Assembly (NCBI GenBank): GCA_030145305.1
Contig: JAQYVX010000001.1
Location: 299,357 to 329,356, forward strand
Direction: 5' to 3'
Source: Halarcobacter sp.
GTDB taxonomy: Bacteria; Campylobacterota; Campylobacteria; Campylobacterales; Arcobacteraceae
Length of the DNA stretch: 30,000 nucleotides
The notes beneath the pieces are model-generated. The model saw nothing but the letters and a program-made list of their open reading frames with translations. It ran no database searches and was not told where the DNA came from. Of this stretch, positions 2,386-20,539 are shown piece by piece. Positions within the stretch are counted from its first letter, which is position 1. Every line of letters begins with the position of its first letter. The position numbers and the translations under genes were made by a program.

Positions 2386-2979
2386 TTAAAGTATTTTTAA
2401 CCACTGTCCTATTATTCTTTGCTCAGCTTTTACTGTTGTAGTTGCTCCATGACCTGGATATATTGTCATATCTTCTTTAATATTTAAAAATTGTTTAATA
2501 CTCATTTTCATATCTTTAGGTGAACTAAAAGGAAAATCAACACGACCAATTGAACCTTTAAAAATAAAATCGCCAGTAAAAAAAGCTTTTCCAATTTTAA
2601 TTGCACTACAGCCAGGAGTATGTCCTGGAAAATGAAAATATTGAATATTTAAATCAGCAAATGAAAAAGGTTTTTTGTCATTAACTTTTACATCAGGTTT
2701 ACTTAAAGCATAACCTTCATTTTCAAAATCATTTTCTAATAAAAAGGCATCCCCAATAGGACAATAAATTGGAATATCAAATGCTTCTTTTAAAGCTTTA
2801 TTTGACCAAATATGATCAGAATGCCCATGAGTATTAAGAATTACTAAAGGGTTTTTAACATTAGCTTTTACCCATGATACAGCACCCATTCCAGGGTCAA
2901 TTATTATTTCTTGTCCATTATTTGAAACTATATAACAGTTAGTTTGATATGGGCCCATTGGTTTACACAATATTTTCAT
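2386..2979 (-). CDS. MBL-fold metallo-hydrolase (glyoxalase II-like)
   Basis: THGHSDH metal-binding motif, a downstream GHTPG and a C-terminal PGHG. The ~197 aa length is typical. Confidence 0.8.
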   Translation of the reverse strand: MKILCKPMGPYQTNCYIVSNNGQEIIIDPGMGAVSWVKANVKNPLVILNTHGHSDHIWSNKALKEAFDIPIYCPIGDAFLLENDFENEGYALSKPDVKVNDKKPFSFADLNIQYFHFPGHTPGCSAIKIGKAFFTGDFIFKGSIGRVDFPFSSPKDMKMSIKQFLNIKEDMTIYPGHGATTTVKAEQRIIGQWLKIL

Positions 2980-3478: not shown

Positions 3479-4198
3479 CTAACTATTTTTTTTTATCAAT
3501 TTCGTATAGTACTCTTCCAATAAATGTTTATATTCAGGTTTTAGATAAAATCCAAATAATTGATAATAATATTTTATTGTCATAGACAATGCTTTCTCTT
3601 TATCTAAAATACCAATTTTCACATCTTCTAATATTGTTTTATTAAATCTCAAACAAATATCATTAAAAGTTCTTGCACTACATTTTTCTATATATCCATC
3701 TTTTACACAATTTTCTAACATTGTATAACTACGTGAATATAGATTATTTATATGAAACATCTTATCTAAAAATTCAGGACCCTCATGTTCATTTACTTCT
3801 GGATAAAGTTCATAATACTGTTTAGTATACTTTTCAAATTTCTCATCACCATGAGAGAAAAATAGTAATTCAAAAATTTCTGGCTTTTCATAAGCATGTA
3901 TTGAGAAACATTTACAAACTGACATATAAATTTCAATAGAATTTTTACAATCCGAAATACAGTCTACTAAACTGTTATTGTATTCTTCAAGATAATGCAT
4001 ATTTGCAAGAAAAATTAAATGTGATAAGTTATCAAAATAATTATAAAGAGTTGCACTAGTATAACCTGCAAGATTGGCTACATTTCTAATAGTTACTCCC
4101 TCTATTCCTTCTTTTTTTATTATTTCTTCTGTCGCTTCAATAAAATAATTCATTATTCGTTCTTGTTTGAGTTGTATACGTTTTTCTTTAATATCCAT
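3479..4198 (-). CDS. TetR/AcrR-family transcriptional regulator
   Basis: N-terminal helix-turn-helix TIRNVANLAGYTSATLYNYF. It is the last gene in the cai-side gene string and the only regulator in the window. Confidence 0.85.
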   Translation of the reverse strand: MDIKEKRIQLKQERIMNYFIEATEEIIKKEGIEGVTIRNVANLAGYTSATLYNYFDNLSHLIFLANMHYLEEYNNSLVDCISDCKNSIEIYMSVCKCFSIHAYEKPEIFELLFFSHGDEKFEKYTKQYYELYPEVNEHEGPEFLDKMFHINNLYSRSYTMLENCVKDGYIEKCSARTFNDICLRFNKTILEDVKIGILDKEKALSMTIKYYYQLFGFYLKPEYKHLLEEYYTKLIKKNS

Positions 4199-4342
4199 TT
4201 TTTTCCTTTTTATTTATCTAAATGTTATTAATATCTAAACAAATTGTATCAAAGAAATGATCAATAATTTAAATATAATCAAGATTATATTTAAATTATA
4301 TCTTGTTTTACTTATAAAAATATTCAATTTACAATGCCATGA

Positions 4343-5950
4343 TCAAAATAAAACATTTCCTATTGCTTCATTATATGGTAAAGCCCAATATTTTATTAAA
4401 AATATAGTAATAACTATTCCTGAAATAATTAAAACATTAGCATATATTCTATCAATTTTGTAATCTTTTGCTATGATTTCTGTCTTTGGTACAATATGTA
4501 AATTGTTTTGAAAAGATATTTCTTCTTCTGTTTTAATTTGACCACGAGACCCAAGAATTCCAAAAATAATACTAACGAATACTCCTATAAAAAAAGGATG
4601 GAAAAAATTATCAAAAGGCATATCAAAAAATTCTTTTAAACATTTACTAATCAAATATCCAAAAAAACCACCTAACATTGAGAAAAAAGCACCACGTTCT
4701 GTAAGTGTTTTACTCCATACACTTGCAAAGGCTACATAACCCCAAGACGCGGCAATAATAGTACTTGCAAACCAAGCAATAATACGAATTGATGAAAGTT
4801 CTAAATAAGCTAGTATCACAGCTACTAAACTAACAATAAATATTATAACTCTTGTAAAATTAACTTGTGAAGAATCATTTTTAAATTTTATATCAAACAC
4901 ATCAGCTGAAGTACAAAAACTAACTACTGAAAGAAAAGTAGAAGCTGAAGACAATCCTGCTGCCATAATACCTGTTAAAAGAAGAACACCAACAAACTTT
5001 GGAACTATTTCAAAAGCTGTCCATATAATTACTCTCTCTGGTTGAACCATATTTGGATTTAATTGAATAACACTAATAGCCATTAAGTACAAGTATAAAA
5101 GAAAAAATACAGTTAAAATCATTCCAATTGTACCTGCTCTAAAGATAACATGTTCATTTTTAACCATTAAATTTCGTCCAGCTTGCCAAGGACTAACTGC
5201 TAATGTAACCATCCAAACTATACCAATAGTTACTCCATAAAAAATCATATCCATAGCAGATTTTCCATTCGTATTTCCATGATAACTAAGAAGTCCCTCT
5301 GGGGTATTTGGATTATTAAGAAGATTTGTTAATAAATCACTTACTCCTCCTGCTGCTGAAAATATATATTGTCCAGCAATAACAGTTGAAACTAAGAAAA
5401 ATATACACATTATAGTATCTGTAACAAGTACACCACGAGAACCTGAATATATAGTAAAAAACATAATACTTGCCCAAACAAGGATTAAACAGGTTAATCT
5501 ATCAAAGCCTGTCATAGTTTCCATTAACTGACCCGTTCCTTGAAGAACACTCAATAAATAAGAACTTAATGAAAAGATTGTTATCAACCCAGCAAACACC
5601 CGAATTCTTCTACTATTAAATCTTTTCCAAAAATACGCTGGCATAGTATTTACTTTTGACCGCCTTATATAACGCCCAAAATACAATCCACCAATTATAT
5701 AACCACAACCACAAAGAGCATTAATTATAAGTAGTGTTGTGATATTTCCAGTGTAAGCATAAGCAGTATCTCCCATGAAACCATTTGTACTAAGCATCGA
5801 GGCAAACATAGTCCCAGCTATAAATATAGTTGAAGCATTACGCCCAGAAACGTAATAATCTTCTACACTTTTTACTTTTCTACCTACATAAATTCCTACA
5901 AGAAGATAAACAACCATACTAAGAACAACACCAAAAACAAAAACATTCAT
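4343..5950 (-). CDS. Sodium:solute symporter (SSS/SSF) family transporter, substrate unknown
   Basis: 535 aa polytopic membrane protein with the SSF-like N-terminus YYVSGRN and multiple glycine-rich TM helices. Confidence 0.75.
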   Translation of the reverse strand: MNVFVFGVVLSMVVYLLVGIYVGRKVKSVEDYYVSGRNASTIFIAGTMFASMLSTNGFMGDTAYAYTGNITTLLIINALCGCGYIIGGLYFGRYIRRSKVNTMPAYFWKRFNSRRIRVFAGLITIFSLSSYLLSVLQGTGQLMETMTGFDRLTCLILVWASIMFFTIYSGSRGVLVTDTIMCIFFLVSTVIAGQYIFSAAGGVSDLLTNLLNNPNTPEGLLSYHGNTNGKSAMDMIFYGVTIGIVWMVTLAVSPWQAGRNLMVKNEHVIFRAGTIGMILTVFFLLYLYLMAISVIQLNPNMVQPERVIIWTAFEIVPKFVGVLLLTGIMAAGLSSASTFLSVVSFCTSADVFDIKFKNDSSQVNFTRVIIFIVSLVAVILAYLELSSIRIIAWFASTIIAASWGYVAFASVWSKTLTERGAFFSMLGGFFGYLISKCLKEFFDMPFDNFFHPFFIGVFVSIIFGILGSRGQIKTEEEISFQNNLHIVPKTEIIAKDYKIDRIYANVLIISGIVITIFLIKYWALPYNEAIGNVLF

Positions 5951-5954
5951 AAGA

Positions 5955-6080
5955 TTATTTCCCTTCTGTATTTTTTGAACAATACTTTTTTTCTTCTTTG
6001 TACATCTTAATATTAAGGAGTACGCCTATAAAAAACAAACAACTGCCTATAAAAATAGAAAATAATATTTCCCCCATCAT
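5955..6080 (-). CDS. Small (41 aa) single-TM membrane peptide, putative accessory subunit of the downstream symporter (not in the ORF track)
   Basis: Translates as MMGEILFSIFIGSCLFFIGVLLNIKMYKEEKKYCSKNTEGK. A GGAG lies 5 nt before the ATG. The stop is 4 nt before the symporter ATG, with the symporter RBS (GAAGGGAAA) inside its 3' end. Confidence 0.55.
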   Translation of the reverse strand: MMGEILFSIFIGSCLFFIGVLLNIKMYKEEKKYCSKNTEGK

Positions 6081-6107: not shown

Positions 6108-6141
6108 TATAAAGCTATATGTATTAACATATAGCTTTATA
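6108..6141. promoter_or_regulatory. Perfect 14-bp inverted repeat (hairpin or operator) between the hydratase gene and the small ORF
   Basis: TATAAAGCTATATG-tattaa-CATATAGCTTTATA. No U-run follows it on the minus strand. Confidence 0.4.
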
Positions 6142-6154
6142 ATTAATCTACTAG

Positions 6155-7006
6155 TTATTTATACTCTGCTAATGCAAAATTTAAATAAATTGTTGCTGGA
6201 TCATCTGCATTAATAACTCTAAAGTGAATAGAGTTATCATCCCATTTCCAAATTTGTGTTGTAACATTAACACCTGGTAATAGTGGTTTTGTAATTCTTG
6301 TTTTAAATCTAGTTAATCTCTCAGAATCACCATCTAATACAGAATTAATAATATGTCTACAAGCAACACCTGCTGTACTTACAGCATGTAAGATAGGTCT
6401 TTCATAACCAATTTCTGCTGCATATTCCCAATCAACATGTTGTGGATGATCATCTCCTGAAAGTCTGTAAACACAAGCTCTATCTTCAGAGATTTTTTCA
6501 GTGATTTCAAAATCTGGCTCTCTTTCAGGAATTTCTACGATATCTTTAGGTGCTTTTGGTCCATTCCAACCACCATCAAAAATACAACAATCTGTACTTT
6601 CATTAGTAAATAATAGTGTTCCATCTTCATCATAAGTTTCACCAAAGTGAACTGCTAAAGTTCCTTTACCTTCACCTCTGTCATATAAACCTTTTAATAA
6701 AACTTTTGTGCTTAATTTACCTTCAAGTTTTTTCATTGGATTAATCATTTTAATATCAAAACTCCAATGTAAAGAACCAGTATAATCATATCCCCAGTCA
6801 ATTGTTTTTGTAACTATTGACTCAACGATAGGACAAGCTGCATACGTAGGAAGCATTTTCATATCTTTTTCGTAAACATATTGTAAATCTGTTTTACCAT
6901 CATATGCTGCTCCACTACCTAGTGCAAATAAACTTAAAGATTTCCAATCATATTCTTTCTCAAACGGACCAAATGTTTGTCCTACCATTTCTGTTTTAAT
7001 TGCCAT
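6155..7006 (-). CDS. MaoC-like / hydratase-2 double hot-dog (R)-specific enoyl-CoA hydratase, in the position of caiD
   Basis: 283 aa. The hydratase-2 motif YRLSGDDHPQHVD lies in the C-terminal half (G184-H190 at 6437-6457). AAGGA RBS 7 nt upstream. Located 31 nt downstream of caiC. Confidence 0.75.
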   Translation of the reverse strand: MAIKTEMVGQTFGPFEKEYDWKSLSLFALGSGAAYDGKTDLQYVYEKDMKMLPTYAACPIVESIVTKTIDWGYDYTGSLHWSFDIKMINPMKKLEGKLSTKVLLKGLYDRGEGKGTLAVHFGETYDEDGTLLFTNESTDCCIFDGGWNGPKAPKDIVEIPEREPDFEITEKISEDRACVYRLSGDDHPQHVDWEYAAEIGYERPILHAVSTAGVACRHIINSVLDGDSERLTRFKTRITKPLLPGVNVTTQIWKWDDNSIHFRVINADDPATIYLNFALAEYK

Positions 7007-7037: not shown

Positions 7038-8612
7038 TTATTTATTTTTATTATCTTTTTCTCTAAGAAGATTTTTTCTTATCTTCCCCGTACTTGTTCT
7101 TGGTAAAGATTTACATATCTCAATAATAGAAGGTACTTTAAAGCAGGCTAAATGTTCAGAACAATATTCCAAAATCTGCTCTTCACTAAACTCTTCACCT
7201 TTTTTTATTACTACAAAAGCTTTAATTAATTCACTGCAAACTTTATCCGCAATGCCAATTACTCCAGCTTCAACTATTTTTGGATGTGCAGATAAAAAGA
7301 TTTCAAGCTCTTCACTTGAAACATTTTCACCAGCACTTTTAATCAAACTTGATTCACGGTCAACAAAATAAAAATACCCATCTTCATCTACATAAGCAAT
7401 ATCACCTGTATGAAGCCAACCATCAGCACTTAATACTTTTTTAGTTGCTTCAATATCATTATAATATTCTTTAAAAATAGTTTTTCCAGGTATCCCTTTA
7501 ACATAAAGTTCGCCTTGAGTATAAGGGCTTACTTCATTTCCTTGACAGTTAATAATTTTTGCTTCATATCCATCACCAACTTTTCCAATAGAAGGCCATC
7601 TACGTTCTTCTCCTGGTCTATCGCCAATTAATCCTACAATTGTTTCAGTCATACCATATGAAGTTAAAAGTCGAACATTAAATCGTTCAAGAAAAGCATC
7701 TTTTTCTTCATCTGAAATTGATAAATAATAAAATACTTCTCTTAAAGAATGTTCTTTTTCCCAAGATTTTGTTTCTTGCATCATTAAAGTGCATATAATC
7801 TTAGGAATACATTCAGTAATCGTTGCTTTATATTTACATACTTGCTTCCAAAACTTTCTCGCACTATATTTTTCAAGAAAAACAAAAGTTGCTCCTGAAA
7901 AAAAAGTAGGTAAAGTAGCTGTGCATTGAGAATCAATATGCCAAGCAGGCATAACTGTCAAATAAATATCATCTTCTTTAATTCTACCTTGCCAAGAAGT
8001 ATAATATCCTGCAAAAAGCATATTATAATGAGTAATTACAACTCCTTTTGGCAATGATGTCGTTCCAGATGTAAATAAAATCTCAACAGCATCTTCAACA
8101 TCTACTTCTACTATCTTATTTAAAGTTGAAGATTGTAATTTTAATTCATTATTGAAATTAATATATGTTTGGTGTTCAAAATTATCATCACGTGCAATTA
8201 AAATATTTTTAACTGAACTAAATCTTTCATTCTTTATTTTTTCATATACACTCAAAACATCATTTTCTATCACAACAAATTTTGGTTTACACTTATTAAC
8301 AATATAAGAACATTCTCGATACAAGTAATGTGCGTTAATAGGCACCATAATGGCGCCTATTTTAGCTAAACCAAACCAACTTATTAATAACTGTGGACTA
8401 TTATGAAGATGAATTGCTACTCTATCTCCTTTTTCAACGCCAAGAGAAAGAAATAAATTTGCAGCTTTATTAATTTCATTATTCAATTCTATATAATTAT
8501 ATTTATTAACTTTTCCATTAATATCTTCAAAAATTAATGCTGTTTTATCACTATAGATTTCCGCAAGAGAATCAAACATCTCTCTTAAGTTTTTATGCTT
8601 CATCTTATCCAT
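7038..8612 (-). CDS. caiC: Crotonobetaine/carnitine-CoA ligase (AMP-dependent synthetase)
   Basis: LFTSGTTSLPKGV AMP-binding motif, plus TSYGMTET, GWLHTGD and a C-terminal GKIRK. Stretches match remembered E. coli CaiC. The start was chosen at M8 because a GAAGGA RBS lies 7 nt upstream; the longest ORF begins at 8633. Confidence 0.85.
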   Translation of the reverse strand: MDKMKHKNLREMFDSLAEIYSDKTALIFEDINGKVNKYNYIELNNEINKAANLFLSLGVEKGDRVAIHLHNSPQLLISWFGLAKIGAIMVPINAHYLYRECSYIVNKCKPKFVVIENDVLSVYEKIKNERFSSVKNILIARDDNFEHQTYINFNNELKLQSSTLNKIVEVDVEDAVEILFTSGTTSLPKGVVITHYNMLFAGYYTSWQGRIKEDDIYLTVMPAWHIDSQCTATLPTFFSGATFVFLEKYSARKFWKQVCKYKATITECIPKIICTLMMQETKSWEKEHSLREVFYYLSISDEEKDAFLERFNVRLLTSYGMTETIVGLIGDRPGEERRWPSIGKVGDGYEAKIINCQGNEVSPYTQGELYVKGIPGKTIFKEYYNDIEATKKVLSADGWLHTGDIAYVDEDGYFYFVDRESSLIKSAGENVSSEELEIFLSAHPKIVEAGVIGIADKVCSELIKAFVVIKKGEEFSEEQILEYCSEHLACFKVPSIIEICKSLPRTSTGKIRKNLLREKDNKNK

Positions 8613-8640
8613 AGCTATTCCTTCTAAAGTCATTGTTAAC

Positions 8641-9864
8641 TTATGCCTTTTTCCCTACATTTACTATTTTACGCTCAGCAAAACCACTGATTTCTTCATC
8701 TGAATAACCAAGATCACTTAATATATCTGCTGTGTCCATACCGTATGATGGTGTTGCACGCCATACTTTACAAGGATTATTTTTGAACTTAGGCATAACA
8801 TTAGGACCTTTACATTTATCTCCTGACATTGTTTCCCATTCAGTAAATGAATCACGAGCTACATATTGAGGATTAGATTGAAGATCTTCTACATCTAATA
8901 CTTTAGCACCCGCAACTTTATAACTTGCAAGTAAAGCTAATGATTCTTCAATAGTTTTTTCTGCAAAGAATGCATCAAGTTTATCTTCTAAAATCTCACC
9001 ACAAGACATACTTCTAGCAATTAATTGTGTACCTTCTGGAATTTCTTCTGTACCAAGTAAATCTGAAATACCAAGTACTTCAAACATTGAACTAACTTGA
9101 GATCCTCCAACAATTTCAAAAACAATATATCCATCACTACATTTATAAAGTCCACAACCACAATATAAAGGATCTTTACCTTTTGTCATACGAGGACACA
9201 TTTCTCCACCATTTAAGTAATCCATCATATAATATTGACCAACTCTAAGCATAACTTCATACATAGCAACATCAATACTTTCACCAACACCTGTTTTCTC
9301 AGCACCATAAACTGCTGCTAAAACTGAACTAGTTACGGCAAATCCAGCCATATAATCAGCGGTATAAGGGAAGGCAGGCATAGGTTGATCTACATCACCA
9401 TTTTGCATTAAGTATCCACTAAATGCTTGTGCAATAGTATTATAAGCAGCTAAATTTGTATACTCAGCAGTACCATATTGTCCAAATCCAGATAAGTGAC
9501 CAATAACTAATTTTTTGTTACGTGCCCAAAGAAGTTCATCAGTAATTCCACGTTTAGCAAAAGCAGGACCTTTACTAGCTTCAATAAATACATCAGCATC
9601 TTCTATTAATTTTAAGAAAACTTCACGCCCTTCATCTGAAAAAACATTTAGTGATAATGCATGAAGATTTCTACGTGATAATTCTGGGTAATTTGGTTGA
9701 ACACGAATTGTATCTGCATAAGCTGAGTGCTCTATCCAAATTACTTCTGCTCCCCATTCTGCAAACATTTGTGCAGAGAATGGACCAGCAATTTCAATTG
9801 CTGAAAAAACAACTTTCATTCCAGCTAGAGGTCCAAATTTTGGTGTTTGTACTTTTTTTGTCAT
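8641..9864 (-). CDS. caiB: Family III CoA-transferase, L-carnitine/gamma-butyrobetainyl-CoA transferase
   Basis: [38 protein letters not shown] and [12 protein letters not shown] closely match remembered E. coli CaiB. Confidence 0.88.
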
Positions 9865-9917
9865 TTAAAATTCCTTTCTTATTCTTTGGAGTATGGAAAC
9901 CACACTCCTTAATTAAA

Positions 9918-11054
9918 TTATCTATATCTTTTTAAAACTTCTCTACCAATAGTTAAAATTTGCATTTCATCTGAACCACCTGATAGTCTATCTATTCTTA
10001 AATCTCTCCAGAAACGACCTACTCTATGTCCAGTTACACCAATTCCTCCAAGAACTTGCATTGATGAATCGATAACACTAAATGCTTCATTTGCACAAAA
10101 ATATTTACACATTGCAGAAGCTCCTGATGTTCCAATTCCTTGATCTGTTTTCCAAGCTGTTTCAAAAATCATATTTTTCATTGCATTTAACTTCATTTCC
10201 ATATGAGCAAATTTTTCTTGAATTAATTGAGTACGACCAATAGCTTCACCAAATTGAACACGTTGGTTAGCATATTTAGCAGCATCTTCAAATGCACATA
10301 AAGCTACACCATAGTTAGTACAAGCTACTAAGAAACGCTCATCATCAAACTCAGCTTTTACACGATTAAAACCTTGACCTTCTTTACCAAAAATATCTTT
10401 TTCTTCTAATTCAACATTATCAAAAACAATTTCACAACAACTATCCATTCTTAGACCAAGTTTATCAAGAGCAGTTAATTTAATACCAGGCTTAGACATA
10501 TCAACAAAGAATTCTGTAAATACAAGAGACTCAGCATCAGCATCTTTTGCCATAACAACTAAATATGGAGTATGTAAACTACTAGTAATAAAACATTTTT
10601 GTCCATTTAAATAAATTTTTCCATCTTTTCTTTTGTATGTTGATTTCATGCTTCCTACATCTGAACCAGCACTTGGTTCAGTAATAGCAGAGTTAAACAT
10701 TTGTTCACCTGTACCACGGAATTTAAAAATTTTATCTATTTGTTCTTGTGAACCATGTCTTAAGATTGTACTAAATCCAGGTAATTGATATAAAACATAC
10801 GTTGGCGCACCATGACGACCTAGTTCTGCCCAAATTGCAGTTAAAGTTACCATGCTTTCCGCCATACCACCATGCTCCTCAGGAAGAAGCATAGTATCAA
10901 TACCTAAATCAGCTAACTCTTTTACCCATCTAATTGGGTATTCATGTTTTTCATCACACTCTGCAAAATATAGTTCCCAATTTTCTCTTTCCATAAGGTC
11001 TCTTACACCTTCAACAAATAATTCTTGTTCATCACTTAATTTAAAATTTATCAT
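9918..11054 (-). CDS. caiA: Crotonobetainyl-CoA reductase (acyl-CoA dehydrogenase family flavoprotein)
   Basis: [54 protein letters not shown] and the terminal LKRYR closely match remembered E. coli CaiA. Confidence 0.88.
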
Positions 11055-11083: not shown

Positions 11084-12601
11084 TTAATACCATTTGTTCT
11101 TTTTTGCATCTTTAAAGAAAGAATAAAGAACCAAGACATTAACAAAAATCAGTGGGAAACCACCGGCAATAATAGCAGTTTGAAGTGGTTTTAATCCTCC
11201 TAGTGCAAGTAAAGTAATACCAATAATACCTACAAGAACAGACCAACCAAGTCTTACCCATAATGGAGGCTCAGTATAACCATCAGCTTCTTTACAAGTT
11301 GACATTGCTAAAGTATATGAACAAGCATTGATCAAAGTAACTGTAGCAAGGAAACAAAGAATAAAGAATCCCCAGATTGTAATTGTAGATAAAGGTAATG
11401 CTGCCCATGCTTCAATAATAGCTCTTGGAACACCTTCATCTTTTACAATTTGAGGTATATTAATTAGATTTTGTTTCATAATATTAACTGTATTACTTCC
11501 AAGAATAGTCCACATAGACCAAGTAGTTGCAGTAAGACCAGCTACCATAACAAAACAAACTTCTCTAACTGTACGACCTCTTGAAATACGAGCTAAGAAG
11601 ATACACATTTGAATACCAAATGTAACCCACCATGCCCAATAGAAAACTGTCCAACCTTGAGGGAAACCACCATCACGGATAGCATCTGTATAGAAAAGCA
11701 TTCTAGAAAGACTATCTAACATAATCCCAACAGAATCTGTAAAATAATTTACTGTAAAAGTTGTTCCACCAATAATTAGTACCCATACTAACATGATAAT
11801 TGAAAGGTAACTTCTTACATCAGATGCCATTTTAATACCTTTTGTTAAACCAAAAGCAACACAAATAGCATTAAAAATAACCCAACAAGCAATAATTGCA
11901 CTATCAACTTGTAATGTACGTTCAATTCCAAATAACCACTCAATACATTCTGTAACAAGAGGAGTAGCTAAACCTAAACTTGTTCCCATTGCAAGAATAA
12001 GTGCAACAATATAGAAGTTATCAATTACAGTACCAAGCCATCCTTTAGAAAGCTTCTCTCCAATAGCCGCTTCAACACAACCACTAGGACGCATTACATT
12101 TATTTTTTTAACATAAATAAAATAACCAAAAGCAACAGTTAAAACAGCATATCCAGCCCATGGTAATGGACCCCAGTGGAATAAACTGTAAGCAACACCA
12201 AACTCTTGTGCTGCAGGAGAAAATGCCTCAATTGCAAATGGTGGATAAGCTATATAATAGTAAGCTTCAATAGTTCCCCAATAAAGAACAGCAGCAGATG
12301 TACAAGATGCGAACATCAAGAAAATCCAACTTCCCGTACTAAATTCTGGTTTTTCTTCACCAAGTGTATTATTTTTCATAGGACCAAAAGCTAGCCATGC
12401 CCAAATGATTCCAAAAATAACCATATACCACTCAAACAACCATCCCCAACTATTTGTTACATAACCAAATAATGAGTTAATAGCTGCATTTGCTGCATCT
12501 AAGTCTCTAACAACTAGGTAACCAAGAATTACCACGACAATAAGTGACGGGAAAAATATTTTAGGTTCAATACCTACTTTTTTCACTTCTTTCTCTTCCA
12601 C
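11084..12601 (-). CDS. caiT: BCCT-family L-carnitine/gamma-butyrobetaine antiporter
   Basis: [20 protein letters not shown] and [15 protein letters not shown] (BCCT signature) are present. The 505 aa length and long stretches match remembered E. coli CaiT. Confidence 0.9.
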
Positions 12602-12954: not shown

Positions 12955-14013
12955 ATGAATTTACTTAGAAATAATGATAAGTCAATTGAGGCAATTGAAA
13001 GAGTATGCCAAGCAATTGAAGATGTTAGACAAGGTAAAATGGTTGTTATGGTTGATGATGAAGATAGAGAGAATGAGGGAGATTTAGTTTATGCTGCTTC
13101 TTTCTCAACTCCTGAAAAAGTTAATTTTATGGCTTCACATGCAAAAGGGCTTATTTGTGTAGCCCTTTCAAAAAAAATAGCTTCACGTTTGGAGCTTACT
13201 CCAATGGTTAAGAATAATGATTCTTCTTATGAAACAGCTTTTACAATTTCTGTTGATGCAAAAGATGCAGAAACAGGGATATCTGCTATTGAAAGAGATA
13301 TGACTATTAAAATCTTATCTGACAATAATTCAGAAGCTGCAGAATTAGTAAGACCAGGACATATTTTCCCTCTTATTGCAAAAGAAGGTGGAGCATTAGT
13401 AAGAACTGGTCATACAGAAGGATCTGTCGATTTATGTAAATTAGCTGGATTAGGTGAAGCTAGTGTTATTTGTGAAGTTATGAAAGAAGATGGAACAATG
13501 GCAAGAAGACCTGATCTTGATATTTTCTGTGAAAAGCATGAACTAAATATTGTTTATATCTCTGACATTGTTGAATATCGTATGATGAATGAGTCATTAA
13601 TTAATCTTGAAAAAGAATCAACTCAAGTATTTCTTGGTGCACAAGCAAAAAAATATGATTTTCGAGATCATTTAGATAATAATCACATTGTTTACACTTT
13701 TGGAGAGTTTAGTAATCGTGCTGCTGTAAAATTTCATTCTATTATTCCTGATAATGAACTACTAGCATCAACTGAAAAATATGATGAAATGATAAATAGT
13801 ATTAAATATTTACAAAAAAATAGTGGTATTTTGGTTTTCATGGATAGCAATACTAAAAATATGACTCAAATTAGAGAATATGGAATAGGAGCACAGCTTC
13901 TTAAATATTTAGGAATAGAAGAGATTGAGCTTCTTAGTAATAGTAAAACAATAGAACTTGTGGGAATTAGTGGTTTTGGGTTAAGTGTAACAAAATTAAT
14001 TAGTTTAAAATAA
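12955..14013 (+). CDS. ribB: 3,4-dihydroxy-2-butanone-4-phosphate synthase with a degenerate C-terminal GTP-cyclohydrolase-II-like domain
   Basis: DDEDRENEGDL, RPGHIFPL and RTGHTEGSVDL are DHBP synthase motifs. The C-terminal ~150 aa lacks the Cys triad seen in RibA. Confidence 0.9.
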   Translation: MNLLRNNDKSIEAIERVCQAIEDVRQGKMVVMVDDEDRENEGDLVYAASFSTPEKVNFMASHAKGLICVALSKKIASRLELTPMVKNNDSSYETAFTISVDAKDAETGISAIERDMTIKILSDNNSEAAELVRPGHIFPLIAKEGGALVRTGHTEGSVDLCKLAGLGEASVICEVMKEDGTMARRPDLDIFCEKHELNIVYISDIVEYRMMNESLINLEKESTQVFLGAQAKKYDFRDHLDNNHIVYTFGEFSNRAAVKFHSIIPDNELLASTEKYDEMINSIKYLQKNSGILVFMDSNTKNMTQIREYGIGAQLLKYLGIEEIELLSNSKTIELVGISGFGLSVTKLISLK

Positions 14014-14026
14014 TAATAGAACTAAG

Positions 14027-14063
14027 AAAAGCCAAGTATTTTTGAATACTTGGCTTTTTTTTT
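14027..14063. terminator. Bidirectional rho-independent terminator (ribB / porin)
   Basis: AAAA-GCCAAGTATT-tttg-AATACTTGGC-TTTTTTTTT forms a 10-bp stem flanked by A and T runs. Confidence 0.8.
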
Positions 14064-15201
14064 AGATAGAGAATGGAAAAGTTAGATTAACTCTTAATTC
14101 TTTTTCATCTTTATCTCTACCTGCATCATCATAAAGAACAGCAACATTTAAATCTTTAAATACTCCTGCATCAAATGTATAATCTGCTGTAACACTTGTA
14201 TATGAGTATTCTTTATCATCATAATCATCAAGAACATAATTCATACCAACATTTAGTGCAGGCGTTAATTTATAAGCTACACCAATTTTATATGCATCAC
14301 TATTTGCACCATATGTATCTGATAGAATTGGAGAACCTGTATATGCATAATCTGCACCATTTCCTAATCCTGCATGTACATATGCATCACCAGTTGTTGT
14401 ATAAGCTGCTAATAATGATAAATTACCTAAATCAAAAGTAGCTTTTAAACCAAATAAATCTGTGTCTTTTGAACCCTCTTTTTCACTATCATAATATTGT
14501 GAAGCAAGTCCAAATATTCCTTTTTTAAATGAAGCTTCTGCATATGTAACTTCCATAAGATCTTTTGCATCTAAATAAGCTAAAGTAAGATTTACATTTG
14601 GAATTGAAGAATTTTCTACTACTGCTGTATAAGCACCATCTACTAATTCACCTTGCCAAGTAAAGTCTCTTGTAAATTTACCAAAGTTACCATCTCCATC
14701 TGTACGATTTTGCATTTTTTGAACATATCCAATAGTTACTTTTGTATCAGGGATATCTGAATTAGTAATTAAAGCACCTTCAAAAGATTCTCTATTCATA
14801 CGTGAACCACTTCCATAAATAAGTGGTGTAGCAAAATACATTCGCCCAATTTGTGCTGTAGTTTTGCCAGCAGCATATGAAAGATAAAGTTCTGATAATT
14901 GAGAACCTGACCCATACATATCACTATTAAATACACTTTCAGCATCATCATCTGAGAAAGGTGAAGATGAAGATTGGAAAGTTGATTTTAAACCAAAACC
15001 ATAGAAACGTCCTGTTTCATAACTAAGATCTAAACCAAAATTCATAATATCAGCATCTACACCTTTATCACGTTGCCAATAATAAGCCTGAACTTTACCT
15101 TCTACCTTACCTTCTTTAAAGGCATCTGCCAAACTATCTGCACCAAATGCAGATGAACTTAAAGCAATAATTGCTGCTAGACTAAATTTAACTAATTTCA
15201 T
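14062..15201 (-). CDS. Outer-membrane beta-barrel porin (OprD-like / Campylobacterota porin family)
   Basis: Start taken at MKLVKFSLAAIIALSSSAFG|ADS, which gives a signal peptide and has an AAGGAG RBS 5 nt upstream. Sequence is rich in G/Y/D/S/T with alternating beta-strand patterns. The ORF-track start at 15228 lacks an RBS. Confidence 0.75.
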   Translation of the reverse strand: MKLVKFSLAAIIALSSSAFGADSLADAFKEGKVEGKVQAYYWQRDKGVDADIMNFGLDLSYETGRFYGFGLKSTFQSSSSPFSDDDAESVFNSDMYGSGSQLSELYLSYAAGKTTAQIGRMYFATPLIYGSGSRMNRESFEGALITNSDIPDTKVTIGYVQKMQNRTDGDGNFGKFTRDFTWQGELVDGAYTAVVENSSIPNVNLTLAYLDAKDLMEVTYAEASFKKGIFGLASQYYDSEKEGSKDTDLFGLKATFDLGNLSLLAAYTTTGDAYVHAGLGNGADYAYTGSPILSDTYGANSDAYKIGVAYKLTPALNVGMNYVLDDYDDKEYSYTSVTADYTFDAGVFKDLNVAVLYDDAGRDKDEKELRVNLTFPFSI

Positions 15202-15222
15202 AATATCTCCTTGAAAATTTAT

Positions 15223-15308
15223 AATCACGATTAATAAAACATAGCGATGATTTAAAAATCATGATTAATAAGTTCTGAATTGTACTGTAATGTTTAATCA
15301 ATTGTCAA
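15223..15308 (-). promoter_or_regulatory. Porin promoter with operator copies
   Basis: On the minus strand: TTGACA (15303-15308), an 18-nt spacer, then TACAAT (15279-15284). Operators are AATCATGATT (15257-15266), a degenerate copy (15243-15252) and AATCACGATT (15223-15232). Confidence 0.6.
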
Positions 15309-15544: not shown

Positions 15545-16135
15545 TTAACTATTTTTAGGAGTATAGTCCATTTCAAATCTTTTAGCATTTCTAGCAGGAG
15601 TTAATTCTTTTAATGGCTCACAAGATTTAAAATCTTTTAAACATCGTGTGGTTAAATCAATATACGATTGTGTACTTTCTCTTTTCCACTCAATTTCTTC
15701 TTCACGCAACTCTCTTTTTACTTTTGCTGGAATACCAAGGGCAAGATGATTATCAGGAATATTCATCATCCCAGGAACAAGAGAAGAAGCTCCAACAATG
15801 GAATTACAACCAACTACAGCCTTATCCATTATCACAGCACCCATTCCAACCATTGCGTTATTTTTTATATGACAACTATGTAAAATTGCACTATGTCCAA
15901 TATGACCGTTTTCTTCAATAATAGTATCTATTCCTGTATATCCATGTAAAATGCAACAATCTTGTATATTAACATTTTTTCCAATGAGAATACGTCCAAA
16001 ATCGCCTCTTATAGAACTATTTGGTCCTATATAAGAACCTTCTTCAATAATTACATCACCTATAATTACAGCACTTTCATGAACAAATGCTTTTTCGTTA
16101 ATAACAGGTTTAATACCATCAATTTCATAAATCAT
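15545..16135 (-). CDS. caiE: Carnitine operon protein CaiE (hexapeptide-repeat / gamma-carbonic-anhydrase-like)
   Basis: FVHESAVIIGDVII, IRGDFGRILIG, NIQDCCILHG and ENGHIGHSAILH are present, and the sequence is collinear with remembered E. coli CaiE. Length 196 aa. Confidence 0.85.
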   Translation of the reverse strand: MIYEIDGIKPVINEKAFVHESAVIIGDVIIEEGSYIGPNSSIRGDFGRILIGKNVNIQDCCILHGYTGIDTIIEENGHIGHSAILHSCHIKNNAMVGMGAVIMDKAVVGCNSIVGASSLVPGMMNIPDNHLALGIPAKVKRELREEEIEWKRESTQSYIDLTTRCLKDFKSCEPLKELTPARNAKRFEMDYTPKNS

Positions 16136-16173: not shown

Positions 16174-16461
16174 TTAACCGTAACGATACTCAACACCAAA
16201 TGTTCCATTTGGATATTCCCATTTTTTTAAAATAGTTTTACCACATAAAATACGGCATGTTCCACATTCTAAGCAACCAGCATAATCAAACTTGAAATTT
16301 CCATTGTCATCTCTTTTGTATAAGCCAGCAGGACACGCTGCTTCTAATTTTTTGAATTCAATTAAATCTGGTTTATCAACTAACTCAATATGAGCTTCAC
16401 CTTCATCAACAAAAAATTTATTAACACCTAGTTTAACATCAACATTTACTGAATTTTTCAT
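16174..16461 (-). CDS. fixX: Ferredoxin-like protein FixX
   Basis: 95 aa with CPAGLY and CLECGTCRILC cysteine motifs. It overlaps the fixC stop by 4 nt. Confidence 0.88.
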   Translation of the reverse strand: MKNSVNVDVKLGVNKFFVDEGEAHIELVDKPDLIEFKKLEAACPAGLYKRDDNGNFKFDYAGCLECGTCRILCGKTILKKWEYPNGTFGVEYRYG

Positions 16462-17744
16462 ATCGATTTCACCCCTTTAAATGCATCTTTCATTAGATTT
16501 ATAAATCCAACTTTCTTTAGATATGGCATAACCGTTTTTCGTAATGGTTGGCTAGGTCCGTTTACAGTAAACATTCCTTTCATAATACCAGTTGCCATTT
16601 CTGGATAATCATTAAACATACGTTTATTATCTAAGAATTCTGGTAAATCTTTATATAATTTTAAGTCTTTCATTACAAAACTATCATCTAATTCTTTTGT
16701 ATAAGAAGATAAAGAGTTTTCACTAAAATCATTTTTTTCTTTTGCCGCAAGAATTGCATTAGCAGCTGCTTCACCTGAAGCAATAGCTAAATCCATACCA
16801 CGAACTGTATATCCAACATTAAGACAAAGACCTGCTGCGTCACCTACAAGAAGAACACCATTACCAACCATTTTAGGTAACATGTTATATCCTCCTTCTG
16901 GAACTACGTGAGCAGAATACTCAACAGATTCTCCTCCTTTTACTAAAGGCTTAACACTTGGATGATTTTTAAAATCTTCTAACATTTGAGGAACACTTTT
17001 TCCAGCTTTCTCAATATTATGAAGTCCAAATACAACACCTAATGAAATAGTGTCTTCATTAGTATAAATAAATCCTCCACCCATATATCCATCAGAAGGT
17101 GTACCCGCAAAAAGCCAAGCTGTACCTTCATCATCAGTACAAGCGAAACGATCATTTACTTGTTCTTTTGTTAATTGTATAACTTCTTTAACTCCAACCG
17201 CGCAATTATGTGGAGTTACTTTTGAAACCATACCTAATTTTTCACCTAAGATAGAATTTGCACCATCAGCAAGGACAACGACATCTGCCTCCATCTCTTC
17301 ACCACCAGCAACAACTCCACAGACTTTTCCATTACGAGTTATAACATCGTCTACACGAACACCAGGAATAAGTCCAACACCGGCTTCTTCTGCCTTGTCC
17401 CCTAACCATTGATCAAATTTAGTTCTTAATACTGTATATGAACGATTTGATTTTTCATCATCCTTAGGAGCAGCATAATCCATAGTAACACTACTTTTCT
17501 CTTCCATAAAAGAAATCTTTTCATGAACAATCGCACGTTCAATAGGAGCCTCTTCTGCAAAATTTGGAAAAATTTTTTCAATACTATGAGCATAAAGCCT
17601 ACCACCAGTCATATTCTTAGACCCTGCAAAGTTTCCTCTTTCAATAATTAGAGTTTCTAAACCTGCTTTTGCAAGAATATAACCAGTAATACAACCAGCT
17701 ATTCCTCCACCTACAATAATTGCATCAAATTTTTCTTCAGCCAT
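16458..17744 (-). CDS. fixC: FAD-dependent ETF-quinone-type oxidoreductase FixC
   Basis: FDAIIVGGGIAGC dinucleotide-binding fold. 428 aa. Sits in the fixB-fixC-fixX order. Confidence 0.88.
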   Translation of the reverse strand: MAEEKFDAIIVGGGIAGCITGYILAKAGLETLIIERGNFAGSKNMTGGRLYAHSIEKIFPNFAEEAPIERAIVHEKISFMEEKSSVTMDYAAPKDDEKSNRSYTVLRTKFDQWLGDKAEEAGVGLIPGVRVDDVITRNGKVCGVVAGGEEMEADVVVLADGANSILGEKLGMVSKVTPHNCAVGVKEVIQLTKEQVNDRFACTDDEGTAWLFAGTPSDGYMGGGFIYTNEDTISLGVVFGLHNIEKAGKSVPQMLEDFKNHPSVKPLVKGGESVEYSAHVVPEGGYNMLPKMVGNGVLLVGDAAGLCLNVGYTVRGMDLAIASGEAAANAILAAKEKNDFSENSLSSYTKELDDSFVMKDLKLYKDLPEFLDNKRMFNDYPEMATGIMKGMFTVNGPSQPLRKTVMPYLKKVGFINLMKDAFKGVKSI

Positions 17745-17772
17745 AATTCTACCTTATATAAAAATTTATATA

Positions 17773-18714
17773 TTACTGTTTAAGGGCATTAATTACAGCA
17801 GGTAGAATAGTATAAAGATCCCCTACTATCCCATAATCAGCATAGTCAAAAATTGGTGCATTTTTATCTTTATTCACAGCTACAATTATCTGTGAATCTT
17901 TAGCACCTACCATATGTTGGATTTGTCCAGAAATACCAACTGCAAAATAGATTTCAGGTTTAGCCATAACACTTGAAATACCAATGTAACGTTCATGTTC
18001 CATCCATTTTTCACCTTCTGCTATAGGTCTTGAACATCCTAATTCTGCATCGAATAAAGAACAAAGTTCTTCTGCAATTTTAATATCTTCTTCTTTTGCA
18101 ATACCACGTCCAATTGCAACAATACGTTTTGCTTTATTTAAATCAACACTACTTCCTTCTTTAGGAAGTCTATTAATACATTTAACACCACTATTGTTTT
18201 CAACAAAATCTACAACTTTAGCTTCACCAGATTTAGAAGTATCAATCTCTTTTCCTTCATATAATCCACCTGATATTACAGCAATAGAAACATTTGTTTT
18301 TATTAATTCTTCACTAATTGCTAATCCACCATATGCTAAATGTTTACATTTAACACCAGCTTCATCAATCTCAATATTAGATACTTCTGTTACAACACCA
18401 GCGTTTAATTCAGCACCAAGTAATGAAGCTAATGCTTTACATCTTTTTGTTCCTGGCATTAATACTAATGATTTACCTTCACTTGCTGCAATAACTTTTG
18501 CAATAGTTTTAGAATAACTTTCTATGATTTTACTAGAATCATATTCTCCTAGATTATAAACTTCATTTGCTCCATAAGCATATGCATCTGACACTTGTTC
18601 AGAACCAATAACTAATGCAGAAACATTTTCTCCTAATTCTAAACCTCCAGCTATTACTTCTGGTAAACGTGCAGAGGTATCACTAAAAACCCATATATTT
18701 GATAACTTACTCAT
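17773..18714 (-). CDS. fixB: Electron transfer flavoprotein alpha subunit FixB
   Basis: The C-terminal FAD-binding region reads PEIYFAVGISGQIQHMVG...IVAVNKDKNAPIF. Length 313 aa. Confidence 0.88.
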   Translation of the reverse strand: MSKLSNIWVFSDTSARLPEVIAGGLELGENVSALVIGSEQVSDAYAYGANEVYNLGEYDSSKIIESYSKTIAKVIAASEGKSLVLMPGTKRCKALASLLGAELNAGVVTEVSNIEIDEAGVKCKHLAYGGLAISEELIKTNVSIAVISGGLYEGKEIDTSKSGEAKVVDFVENNSGVKCINRLPKEGSSVDLNKAKRIVAIGRGIAKEEDIKIAEELCSLFDAELGCSRPIAEGEKWMEHERYIGISSVMAKPEIYFAVGISGQIQHMVGAKDSQIIVAVNKDKNAPIFDYADYGIVGDLYTILPAVINALKQ

Positions 18715-18729
18715 TCTATCCTCCGACTA

Positions 18730-19488
18730 TTAAATAATTTTTCGTAAATGACTAACAAACTCAGAAATTTTATCATCTGAGTCACCTTCGATAATAATAT
18801 GTTGTCGTTCTTTTTTCTTAGGTGCTTTAATATCAACAAGCTCCACTAAATCTTGATTATCTTCTTCACTACTCATAGTATTAACAGGTTTTTTACCTGC
18901 TCCAATAATAGCTTTCATTCCAGGAATTGAAGGTTGATTAATATCAGCAGAAACAGAAATTACAGCTGGTAAAGAAACTTCTAAAACTTCAATTTCGTTT
19001 TCTAAAGCTCTTTCTACTACTAATTTATCTTCTTCAACAGATACAATTTTAGATACTGAGTTAACAACTGATACATTTAAAATAGCTCCAAGTCTAACAC
19101 CTGTTTGCTGTGCATAAATATCACCAGAACCGTCACCACAAAGAATTAAATCAAAACCAACATTTTTTGCAGTTTCAGCAAAAATTTTTGCTGTTTGATG
19201 TGGTAAAATATTTTCATATTTTTCATCACTTACAATAACTAATTCATCTGGTCCACGAGATAGCATATCTTTTCGTGATTTTACATTATCAAGAGATTTC
19301 CCCCCAATACTTACCGCACAAATAGTAGATTCTGCATTATTTTTTTTGATTTCAACTGCTGCTTCAATAGCATTAAGGTCAAATTGACTTATTTTTGGTG
19401 ATGCCTTACTAGTATCAAGACTACCATCATTATTAACTTTAATATCTTGATCTTCGGGTACTAACTTACACCCAACTAAAATTTTCAT
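18730..19488 (-). CDS. fixA: Electron transfer flavoprotein beta subunit FixA
   Basis: ETF-beta features are present: MKILVGCKLVPE, NAIEAAVEIK and LILCGDGSGD. Length 252 aa. Confidence 0.88.
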   Translation of the reverse strand: MKILVGCKLVPEDQDIKVNNDGSLDTSKASPKISQFDLNAIEAAVEIKKNNAESTICAVSIGGKSLDNVKSRKDMLSRGPDELVIVSDEKYENILPHQTAKIFAETAKNVGFDLILCGDGSGDIYAQQTGVRLGAILNVSVVNSVSKIVSVEEDKLVVERALENEIEVLEVSLPAVISVSADINQPSIPGMKAIIGAGKKPVNTMSSEEDNQDLVELVDIKAPKKKERQHIIIEGDSDDKISEFVSHLRKII

Positions 19489-19660: not shown

Positions 19661-20539
19661 TTATCTATATCTTTTTAATATCGTATGGTACATTGCATTA
19701 GCAAATATTTTATTAGTTGTATAACTAAAATGCCATTCATCCCAAAAATAATACTCACTTTCATCACCAGAAGAAGTCATAATTTCAGGGTAAGTACTTT
19801 GATACTCTTTTGTTAATACTTTTAAATCATATTTATTAGGATTTTGTACAATATCATTACTTACAGAAGTATGATCAAATTCGATTATTGATACATTTAA
19901 TTCATTTTGCAACTCTTTTAAATTTCTTGGAAGATTTTCATTAACAATTTTTACAAACTCTTTTGCAGAATTTATTCTATTCATAGTATTTTCATAAGGA
20001 ACAAGAGATAAATCACTACAATTTACAACAAAAAACTTTTTGCCACCAATTTTTGCTAGTTTTTTTATAGCATTCTTTATATTATCAATTACAGTATAAG
20101 CTAACTCTTCAATACTTCCTTGTTTGTTGAAATCCATATATGCAAAATAGTCATTTTCAGAAGCAAAAATAAAATAAAGAGTATTTGAATCTATTTCATT
20201 TGTAGATAAATTCTTTTCAAATCTATCAATTTGTCCTAGCACTCCTGTATCACCTAAATAATCCATCCAGTCTGTATAATTTTCTTTACCAGAAGTTGCA
20301 CCACCTGTTGCATAACTTACTAAGTTTACATCAAGTCTTTTTGCTAATAATTCAACAGCTGCATACCCATTTGAATATCTTCCATTCCAATATAATCCTT
20401 CTGTTGGTTTTAAAAACGCATCTTTTGGACTATTTTCTTTAGATAAAATTGTTGAAGATATTCTTCTTGCTTCTCCATTATCTGAATAACTATTACCAAA
20501 TGCAATTACTTGACTTATTTTATTTTCATTTTTTGACAT
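19661..20539 (-). CDS. SGNH/GDSL-family esterase/lipase with no signal peptide
   Basis: Block I is AFGNSYSDNG, block II-like is NGRYSNG, and block V is FWDEWH (D-x-x-H). AAGGAAA RBS. Located 19 nt downstream of ribA. Confidence 0.75.
   Translation of the reverse strand: MSKNENKISQVIAFGNSYSDNGEARRISSTILSKENSPKDAFLKPTEGLYWNGRYSNGYAAVELLAKRLDVNLVSYATGGATSGKENYTDWMDYLGDTGVLGQIDRFEKNLSTNEIDSNTLYFIFASENDYFAYMDFNKQGSIEELAYTVIDNIKNAIKKLAKIGGKKFFVVNCSDLSLVPYENTMNRINSAKEFVKIVNENLPRNLKELQNELNVSIIEFDHTSVSNDIVQNPNKYDLKVLTKEYQSTYPEIMTSSGDESEYYFWDEWHFSYTTNKIFANAMYHTILKRYR

Follow-up and report, generated by a model that had tools for sequence, protein, structure and literature searches.

A hydratase-2-type double hot-dog protein is a candidate carnitinyl-coenzyme A dehydratase in bacterial carnitine gene clusters

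The 30,000-nucleotide stretch of DNA analysed here, called the window, originates from Halarcobacter sp. (Campylobacterota; assembly GCA_030145305.1, contig JAQYVX010000001.1, positions 299,357–329,356 of the forward strand). The window is AT-rich, with a G+C content of about 30%, and carries a cluster of cai and fix genes of carnitine respiration. The position of the crotonase gene caiD is occupied in this cluster by a gene (6155–7006, minus strand) encoding a 283-residue double hot-dog protein of the hydratase-2/MaoC type. The hot-dog protein is probably a carnitinyl-coenzyme A (CoA) dehydratase, a non-homologous analogue of CaiD that serves a widespread alternative form of the anaerobic respiration of carnitine to gamma-butyrobetaine. 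The pathway is known, and the enzyme at one of its steps appears, from sequence comparisons, to belong to an unrecognized, widespread, and non-homologous family.

The genes of the cluster are located on the minus strand and are transcribed in the order caiT, caiA, caiB, caiC, hot-dog gene, sodium:solute symporter gene of the SSF family, and TetR-family regulator gene. The products of the first four exceed the cut-offs of NCBIfam equivalog models by wide margins. These are the antiporter CaiT for L-carnitine and gamma-butyrobetaine (11084–12601; NF002887, 843.7 bits, cut-off 541), the crotonobetainyl-CoA reductase CaiA (9918–11054; NF002885, 694 bits, cut-off 540), the L-carnitine CoA-transferase CaiB (8641–9864; NF002914, 661.4 bits, cut-off 413), and the crotonobetaine/carnitine-CoA ligase CaiC (7038–8633; NF005947, 790.7 bits, cut-off 651). 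The four proteins are 69, 73, 69, and 54% identical to their respective counterparts from E. coli K-12, and the caiT-caiA-caiB-caiC order and orthology proposed in the original prediction, which was made from the DNA sequence alone, are borne out. The hot-dog gene starts after a gap of 31 nucleotides from the stop codon of caiC and has its own ribosome-binding site, AAGGA, positioned 8–9 nucleotides before the ATG.

The fixABCX block (16174–19488) is on the same strand, upstream of caiT. It consists of fixA (18730–19488; Pfam ETF, 55% identity to E. coli FixA), fixB (17773–18714; Pfam ETF_alpha, 47% identity to E. coli FixB), fixC (16458–17744; Pfam FAD oxidoreductase/ETFQO, 58% identity to E. 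coli FixC), and fixX (16174–16461; Pfam Fer4, 62% identity to E. coli FixX). As an electron-transfer flavoprotein system, FixABCX supplies CaiA with electrons. Downstream of fixX is a gene for a caiE/paaY-like hexapeptide-repeat protein (15545–16135, minus strand), which shares 47% identity with CaiE of E. coli and falls short of the cut-offs of both the CaiE model (226.5 bits, cut-off 305) and the PaaY model (263.6 bits, cut-off 319.6). An OprD-like porin gene and the plus-strand gene ribBA stand between caiT and the caiE-fix block. With the caiE/paaY-like gene taken as a putative caiE, the enterobacterial cai/fix system is complete in the window but for caiD and caiF. A tblastn search of the window with E. 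coli CaiD returned zero matches even at E ≤ 10, and no crotonase-fold (ECH) model matched the scanned open reading frames of at least 80 amino acids, in agreement with the earlier claim that the window contains no crotonase-like gene. E. coli CaiF had no tblastn match in the window or in any of the loci compared.

The division of the protein into two hot-dog halves, with the hydratase-2 motif in the second, was predicted correctly. The Pfam domains MFE-2_hydrat-2_N (PF22622, residues 18–138, E = 1.4e-11) and MaoC_dehydratas (PF01575, residues 158–260, E = 1e-15) are both matched above their gathering scores, and no NCBIfam model matched the protein. The closest solved structures by sequence are those of human MFE-2 hydratase 2 (1s9c, E = 3.8e-33) and a MaoC protein of M. 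tuberculosis (3khp). The AlphaFold2 model of the hot-dog protein, with a predicted local distance difference test score (pLDDT) of 87 and a predicted template-modelling (TM) score of 0.87, was compared with 3khp and 1s9c by Foldseek, which gave TM scores of 0.87–0.89. The profile search, in which MaoC/hydratase-2 models were matched and ECH models were not, places the protein in the hydratase-2/MaoC superfamily, and the structure prediction supports the same assignment.

As is typical of the hydratase-2/MaoC superfamily, the N-terminal hot-dog half would be non-catalytic and the C-terminal half catalytic, and Asp185 and His190 align with the catalytic residues of 1s9c. The full motif [YF]-x(1,2)-[LVIG]-[STGC]-G-D-x-N-P-[LIV]-H-x5-[AS] is interrupted at two positions, Asn being replaced by His and [LIV] by Gln, although the Asn is a soft criterion, variable in outgroups. 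The glycine of the oxyanion hole, expected 18 residues past the catalytic His, is replaced by Ala208. The protein belongs to the hydratase-2/MaoC superfamily by its fold and catalytic dyad, and it deviates from the superfamily in these two features of the motif.

Distribution and conservation of the cai-linked clade

A search of 5.8 billion proteins identified 273 relatives of the hot-dog protein. The 120 relatives that were listed are mostly full length, with about 280–290 residues, share 45–92% identity with it, and originate from many phyla. Their database names are limited to "MaoC/PaaZ C-terminal domain-containing", "acyl dehydratase", or a bile-acid enoyl-CoA hydratase. The name "...cholest-24-enoyl-CoA hydratase", given to some members by the Prokaryotic Genome Annotation Pipeline (PGAP), is very probably a wrong transfer. 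When each species was represented by a single genome, a scan provided 239 matches, the best 80 loci of which were analysed. The top match is a protein of an uncultured Sulfurospirillum with 96% identity, and an identical protein is encoded on an overlapping 36-kb metagenome contig (locus L001). The loci were annotated using proteins from the window and from E. coli as tblastn probes, and 83 loci were compared.

The hot-dog gene occurs together with caiA, caiB, and caiC in every locus with enough flanking DNA (83 loci). In 77 of them, caiC or caiD is its immediate upstream neighbour, and the other six owe their different arrangement to contig ends or to a paralogue in between. The clade includes Campylobacterota, Desulfobacterota, a Dormibacterota genome, the gammaproteobacteria Endozoicomonas, Shewanella, and Ferrimonas, and the betaproteobacterium Sutterella. 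It is also found in Bacillota (Bacillus and its relatives, Sporomusa, Desulfitobacterium, and Syntrophomonas) and Actinomycetota (Actinomyces, Trueperella, Arcanobacterium, Cellulomonas, Oerskovia, and Propionibacteriaceae). The association of the hot-dog family with carnitine genes spans seven or more phyla or classes of bacteria. The swap in the CaiD slot pointed out in the original prediction is therefore real in the window but is not specific to it.

The clade has sharp boundaries. No pair within it is less than 56% identical, and the median pairwise identity is 70%. When the library was clustered at 50% identity, the clade was reduced to one full-length representative, and the next full-length relatives were 33–42% identical. 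A plasmid search retrieved one member (54% identity), followed by generic MaoC proteins with identities of at most 34.5%. The nearest outgroup protein, P0149, is 42% identical and has the canonical motif; it is encoded on a 1.3-kb contig, the context of which is uninformative.

The hot-dog protein is as well conserved as the established enzymes of the pathway. Its median pairwise identity is 0.70, compared to 0.67 for CaiA, and it is more conserved than CaiB and CaiC. The pairwise identities of the hot-dog protein correlate with those of CaiA, CaiB, and CaiC with Spearman coefficients of 0.67, 0.85, and 0.66, respectively, as strongly as CaiA, CaiB, and CaiC correlate among themselves (0.61–0.77). 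Such conservation and co-evolution with CaiABC are what a core catalytic enzyme of the pathway would be expected to display.

No CaiD-like sequence was detected at E < 0.01 within 10 kb on either side of the 67 caiD-less main-clade genes, which comprise those of 64 loci, the window, and two near-identical metagenome contigs. These clusters, together with the linkage to caiABC, support the proposed non-orthologous displacement of CaiD. However, CaiD and the hot-dog protein co-occur in Shewanella and Ferrimonas, and the two proteins are not simply interchangeable.

Several loci differ from this general layout. The caiB gene of L001 (4049–5427) is matched by tblastn in two pieces and was called as a 195-residue fragment, which may reflect a frameshift or an assembly error. 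On a plasmid of Curtobacterium sp. (NZ_CP126272.1, locus L084, 5660–13672), genes for an IclR regulator and a hypothetical protein are followed in order by an MFS transporter gene, caiB, caiC, the gene of the hot-dog protein (54% identity), and that of an MBL-fold hydrolase. Its caiB is probably frameshifted, and the plasmid contains neither caiA nor fix genes, so that the dehydration step is present without the reduction step.

A second hot-dog protein, MaoC2, is encoded in L003 (6222–8340), L004 (10962–13050), L006 and L011 (near 9108–9960), and L085 and L086 (7023–15865), but not in the window. The module combines a second caiB-like CoA-transferase with a hot-dog protein from a sister clade that is about 50–55% identical to the window protein. 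The catalytic Asp of MaoC2 is replaced by Cys, Ile, or Asn, and both His residues are retained. In Ferrimonas, the module has the order fixABCX-MFS-caiB2-MaoC2-BCCT-ABC-F-acyl-CoA dehydrogenase and adjoins the main cai operon. The MaoC2 module may constitute a parallel pathway for another betaine.

Active site and proposed reaction

The hydratase-2 motif G-D-D-H-P-Q-H is encoded by codons G184–H190 (6437–6457, minus strand), at the position given in the original prediction. The translated segment reads Y180-R-L-S-G-D185-D-H187-P-Q-H190-V-D, and the extended motif is Y-R-L-S-G-D-D-H-P-Q-H-VDWEY-A. Asp185 and His190 are retained, whereas the position of Asn is occupied by His187 and that of [LIV] by Gln189. 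The roles of the Asp/His dyad are assigned by homology (PMC3823801, PMC2698920). Asp185, His187, and His190 are invariant in all 82 aligned main-clade sequences, 67 from caiD-less clusters and 15 from clusters with CaiD. The emphasis initially placed on the change of Asn to His is only partly justified: the His is invariant in the clade but is not diagnostic of it. Among 128 outgroup MaoC representatives with a parsable motif, the position is occupied by Asn in 102, Phe in 12, His in 5, and Tyr in 3, with the other residues occurring once each. The substitution was therefore rejected as a clade signature.

The distinctive change in the active site is that of the oxyanion-hole Gly to Ala. The codon of Ala208 (6383–6385, minus strand) was located by alignment with 1s9c (ILHA versus ILHG), and the residue corresponds to Gly533 of human MFE-2 and Gly217 of the MaoC protein from Phytophthora. 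In canonical enzymes, the term "catalytic triad" is applied to the Asp, the His, and this oxyanion-hole Gly. Position 208 is Gly in 125 of the 128 outgroup representatives and Ala in none of them. Within the main clade, it is Ala in all 67 sequences from caiD-less clusters and Gly in all 15 from clusters with CaiD. The only other otherwise-invariant position that separates the two groups is 238, which is Ile in the former and Leu in the latter.

Further differences from the human enzyme are located outside the motif. Human Glu366, reportedly found to be essential by Qin et al. in 2000, aligns with Ser or Gly in the clade. The clade-invariant residues Trp81, Asp84, Asp139, Asp144, and Trp193 correspond to Gly, Tyr, Leu, Ser, and Pro in the human protein. 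Acidic and aromatic residues are expected around a trimethylammonium group, and the invariant Asp and Trp residues would suit the binding of such a group.

In the proposed pathway, carnitine would enter the cell through CaiT and possibly through the SSF symporter too, and would be converted to carnitinyl-CoA by CaiC and CaiB. The hot-dog hydratase would then dehydrate carnitinyl-CoA to crotonobetainyl-CoA, with Asp185 and His190 serving as an acid-base pair as in hydratase 2, and CaiB would pass the CoA to the next carnitine. A role as dehydratase is the simplest reading because every other step is encoded and the dehydration slot would otherwise be vacant.

The CaiD enzyme known from E. coli and Proteus (EC 4.2.1.149) is a member of the crotonase superfamily. 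The hot-dog protein takes the same operon slot, after caiC, and has the same partners CaiT, CaiA, CaiB, CaiC, and FixABCX, with a CaiE-like protein as the putative CaiE in the window. From the gene context, the two are presumed to catalyze the same reaction, the interconversion of carnitinyl-CoA with crotonobetainyl-CoA and H2O. In contrast, their folds are unrelated (double hot-dog and crotonase spiral), their sequences have no detectable similarity, the hot-dog protein has an Asp/His dyad where CaiD has two Glu residues, and the stereochemistry typical of their families is opposite. The closest known enzymes of this fold are hydratase 2 of the peroxisomal multifunctional enzyme type 2, MFE-2 (human 1s9c, C. 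tropicalis 1pn2/1pn4), and bacterial double hot-dog MaoC proteins such as M. tuberculosis 3khp. They have the same two-domain fold at 25–32% identity and, like the hot-dog protein, carry the catalytic Asp and His of the hydratase-2 motif in their C-terminal half. However, the genomic context of the hot-dog protein is quaternary-amine respiration rather than the oxidation of fatty acids or bile acids.

A possible functional parallel is provided by Propionibacterium freudenreichii, which lacks caiD. Strains with the complete cluster alter L-carnitine and acylcarnitines in milk and raise the level of putative gamma-butyrobetaine (PMC11007987). The caiABC-fixABCX cluster of this species lacks caiT as well as caiD and is preceded by a gene for an MFS transporter paired with one for an alpha/beta-hydrolase, as are the actinobacterial loci studied here. 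These loci have the same gene layout as the P. freudenreichii cluster, with the hot-dog protein in the place of the hydratase, whereas the window has caiT, the SSF symporter, and a GDSL rather than an Abhydrolase_3 esterase. The authors of the P. freudenreichii study noted that a hydratase "might fill these gaps"; its fold, family, distribution, and stereochemical implications were not identified there (PMC11007987). This sentence of the Scoary2 study is the sole prior hint of a link between MaoC/hot-dog enzymes and carnitine that was found in the literature covered, which did not extend to subscription journals.

Stereochemistry and alternative roles

According to the Cahn-Ingold-Prelog (CIP) rules, C2 outranks C4 in 3-hydroxyacyl-CoA, whereas the nitrogen-bearing C4 outranks C2 in carnitinyl-CoA. 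L-(R)-carnitinyl-CoA is therefore spatially equivalent to L-(S)-3-hydroxyacyl-CoA, the product of crotonases, and this argument of the original prediction is sound. It leads to the first of several points that weigh against a dehydratase of L-carnitinyl-CoA. Canonical hydratase 2 produces (R)-3-hydroxyacyl-CoA (PMC2698920), a series that would yield unnatural D-carnitinyl-CoA from crotonobetainyl-CoA, and (S)-type stereochemistry is undocumented for the hydratase-2 fold in the sources consulted for the comparison. The mutation G217A, which is equivalent to the natural change at position 208, reduces the activity of a canonical MaoC protein (PMC3823801). Look-ups of the protein clusters of three family members contained no P. 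freudenreichii name, and the link to this species is through gene order alone.

The remaining points come from Shewanella and Ferrimonas, in which CaiD and the hot-dog protein are encoded in one operon in 15 loci. These loci have the gene order caiT-caiA-caiB-caiC-caiD-hot-dog gene, and in 13 of the 15 caiE comes next. The CaiD proteins are 83–89% identical to E. coli CaiD, and their genes are immediately upstream of the hot-dog gene. The median ratios of nonsynonymous to synonymous substitution rates (dN/dS) in these genomes are 0.026 for the hot-dog gene, 0.014 for caiD, 0.024 for caiB, and 0.028 for caiA. The strong purifying selection on both genes argues that they are not fully redundant. 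Two enzymes maintained side by side in this way must, in that lineage at least, be distinguished by their substrate, their stereochemistry, or the conditions under which they are used. The Shewanella/Ferrimonas lineage forms a single clade nested in the Gram-negative branch of a neighbour-joining tree, and the co-occurrence therefore counts as one evolutionary event. "Replacement" of CaiD is not the whole story.

Either the clade has changed the placement of the substrate relative to the Asp/His pair, or it does not act on L-carnitinyl-CoA. We favour the first alternative because the caiD-less clusters are otherwise complete, and because P. freudenreichii strains with an intact cluster alter carnitine and raise putative gamma-butyrobetaine (PMC11007987). 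As natural carnitine is the L isomer and hydratase 2 acts on the opposite series, we infer that the remodelled site binds its substrate for L processing. The remodelling would involve the change of Gly to Ala, the change of Asn to His187, the replacement of the Glu366 equivalent by Ser or Gly, and the five invariant Asp and Trp positions.

It is conceivable, if unlikely, that the protein is instead a hydratase of canonical D stereochemistry, or one for another beta-hydroxy/enoyl betainyl-CoA, which complements rather than replaces a crotonase. In caiD-less hosts, such a role would call for an unlinked crotonase acting on L-carnitinyl-CoA, or for a cluster that respires only crotonobetaine or another betaine. 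D-carnitine is not known to occur naturally, which counts against this role. The operons of Shewanella and Ferrimonas with both genes under purifying selection agree with it, as does the characteristic R/D specificity of the fold (PMC2698920). In Ferrimonas, Endozoicomonas, and Campylobacterales, related modules join caiB2 and MaoC2 to an additional BCCT transporter and an additional acyl-CoA dehydrogenase, which also suggests that the family has more than one betaine substrate. However, the 67 caiD-less clusters encode all the other steps and no alternative dehydratase, and CaiA, CaiB, and CaiT are still equivalog-level orthologues of the L-carnitine enzymes. Conservation at the level of CaiA suggests a core rather than an accessory step, and P. 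freudenreichii, reported to be without a caiD homologue, still affects carnitine and putative gamma-butyrobetaine (PMC11007987).

An accessory role other than hydration, as a betainyl-CoA thioesterase, a proofreading enzyme, or a non-catalytic partner of CaiB or CaiA, is very improbable. Many thioesterases are found among hot-dog folds, the oxyanion-hole Gly is lost, and the sister protein MaoC2 has lost its catalytic Asp, indicating that the scaffold is able to drift from classic hydration chemistry. Nevertheless, the top sequence and structure matches are all hydratase-2/MaoC dehydratases, with no thioesterase among them, the Asp/His dyad of the main clade is invariant, and the 67 clusters would still lack a dehydratase. 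The possibility that the gene is a decaying or chance-adjacent passenger with no role in carnitine metabolism is effectively refuted by its full length in all loci, the identity of at least 56% maintained over seven phyla or classes, a dN/dS of about 0.03, and its 100% linkage to caiABC.

In fatty-acid beta-oxidation, a crotonase and a hydratase 2 of opposite stereospecificity together provide 3-hydroxyacyl-CoA epimerase activity. By analogy only, the crotonase and the hydratase-2-type enzyme encoded in the Shewanella and Ferrimonas operons could share one enoyl-CoA. Historically, a dehydratase activity and a "carnitine racemase" activity have both been ascribed to CaiD of E. coli (PMC2131755). 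It is a rather doubtful but conceivable extension that position 208 marks a stereochemical switch, and that the Gly-208 form and CaiD together constitute a two-enzyme carnitinyl-CoA epimerase. If so, the Ala-208 form would be a hydratase of inverted stereochemistry acting on natural L-carnitinyl-CoA, a rare (S)-type reaction on a hydratase-2 scaffold. The Gly-208 form would retain the canonical D specificity and, with the adjacent CaiD, would make up a dedicated "carnitine racemase" system, comparable to the pair of opposite hydratases that acts as 3-hydroxyacyl-CoA epimerase.

Neighbouring genes and significance for carnitine metabolism

The hot-dog gene is followed by the SSF symporter gene (4343–5950, minus strand; Pfam SSF). 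Homologues of the symporter with 60–86% identity are located within or beside the cluster in L003–L006, L008, L009, L011, L013, and L023, and the symporter travels with the hot-dog-type cai cluster in Gram-negative lineages. A 41-residue open reading frame (5955–6080, minus strand) with a hydrophobic N-terminal half (MMGEILFSIFIGSCLFFIGVLLNIKMYKEEKKYCSKNTEGK) ends four nucleotides ahead of the start of the symporter gene. It resembles the small membrane proteins commonly encoded ahead of genes for sodium:solute symporters.

The TetR-family protein (3479–4198, minus strand; Pfam TetR_N) has weak matches to BetI models of NCBIfam. Its homologues, with 53–71% identity, adjoin the cluster in L003, L004, L005, L010, and L013, and it is probably the regulator of the cluster in place of CaiF. 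Two inverted repeats are present in this region. The repeat at 6108–6141, located 14 nucleotides past the stop codon of the hot-dog gene and before the symporter gene, is perfect, with 15-nucleotide arms and a four-nucleotide loop. It occurs as a single copy in the window, where 0.01 copies are expected by chance, and has no clear T-run; it could be a terminator, an attenuator, or a binding site for a regulator. A perfect palindrome at 4264–4299, with 17-nucleotide arms separated by two nucleotides, lies in the gap between the symporter and tetR genes and is possibly a TetR operator or a terminator. Promoter-like sites identified in a scan for promoters and terminators were no more common than in shuffled sequence, and operon boundaries were not drawn from the scan.

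Immediately upstream of fixA is a gene for a GDSL-family esterase (19661–20539, minus strand). Of 83 related loci, 49 have an Abhydrolase_3 esterase adjoining the cluster, frequently accompanied by an MFS transporter, and such an esterase-MFS pair was tied to acylcarnitine use in the Scoary2 study (PMC11007987). The GDSL enzyme may act on acylcarnitines as a non-homologous esterase. In Actinomycetaceae (L076, 12288–12965; L053, L056, L058, L059, L066, and L068–L082), a gene for an MBL-fold hydrolase is located after the hot-dog gene and the MFS transporter gene. The hydrolase was considered as a recurring part of the pathway and rejected, since the copy in the window (2386–2979) has an identity of only 29% and is linked to panD in Sulfurospirillum; it is probably unrelated.

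Genes of riboflavin synthesis are located on both sides of the cluster: ribBA at 12955–14013 on the plus strand and the GTP cyclohydrolase II gene at 20559–21164 on the minus strand. The cluster encodes four or five flavoproteins (CaiA, FixA, FixB, and FixC). This arrangement may be a coincidence or provide a co-regulated supply of the cofactor. The OprD-family porin encoded between caiT and the caiE-fix block (14062–15228, minus strand) could enable the uptake of quaternary amines through the outer membrane.

Among the microbial steps on the route from dietary carnitine to trimethylamine and trimethylamine N-oxide (TMAO), the conversion of carnitine to gamma-butyrobetaine comes first. A database of gamma-butyrobetaine clusters defines the pathway as caiTABCDE and employs hidden Markov models for CaiT, CaiA, CaiB, and CaiC as well as CaiD and CaiE (PMC11857547). 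If the hot-dog protein is the dehydratase, this definition overlooks a whole class of clusters, which the database would probably not score as complete. Surveys of carnitine metabolism that rely on genes, such as those of gut microbiomes, are likewise likely to overlook them. Such clusters are present in Actinomyces, Trueperella, Arcanobacterium, Sutterella, Bacillus, Sporomusa, relatives of Desulfovibrio, Endozoicomonas, and Campylobacterota. The exchange of a crotonase for a hydratase-2-type enzyme on a chiral natural substrate would also pose a clean question about stereocontrol in the active site of hot-dog enzymes.

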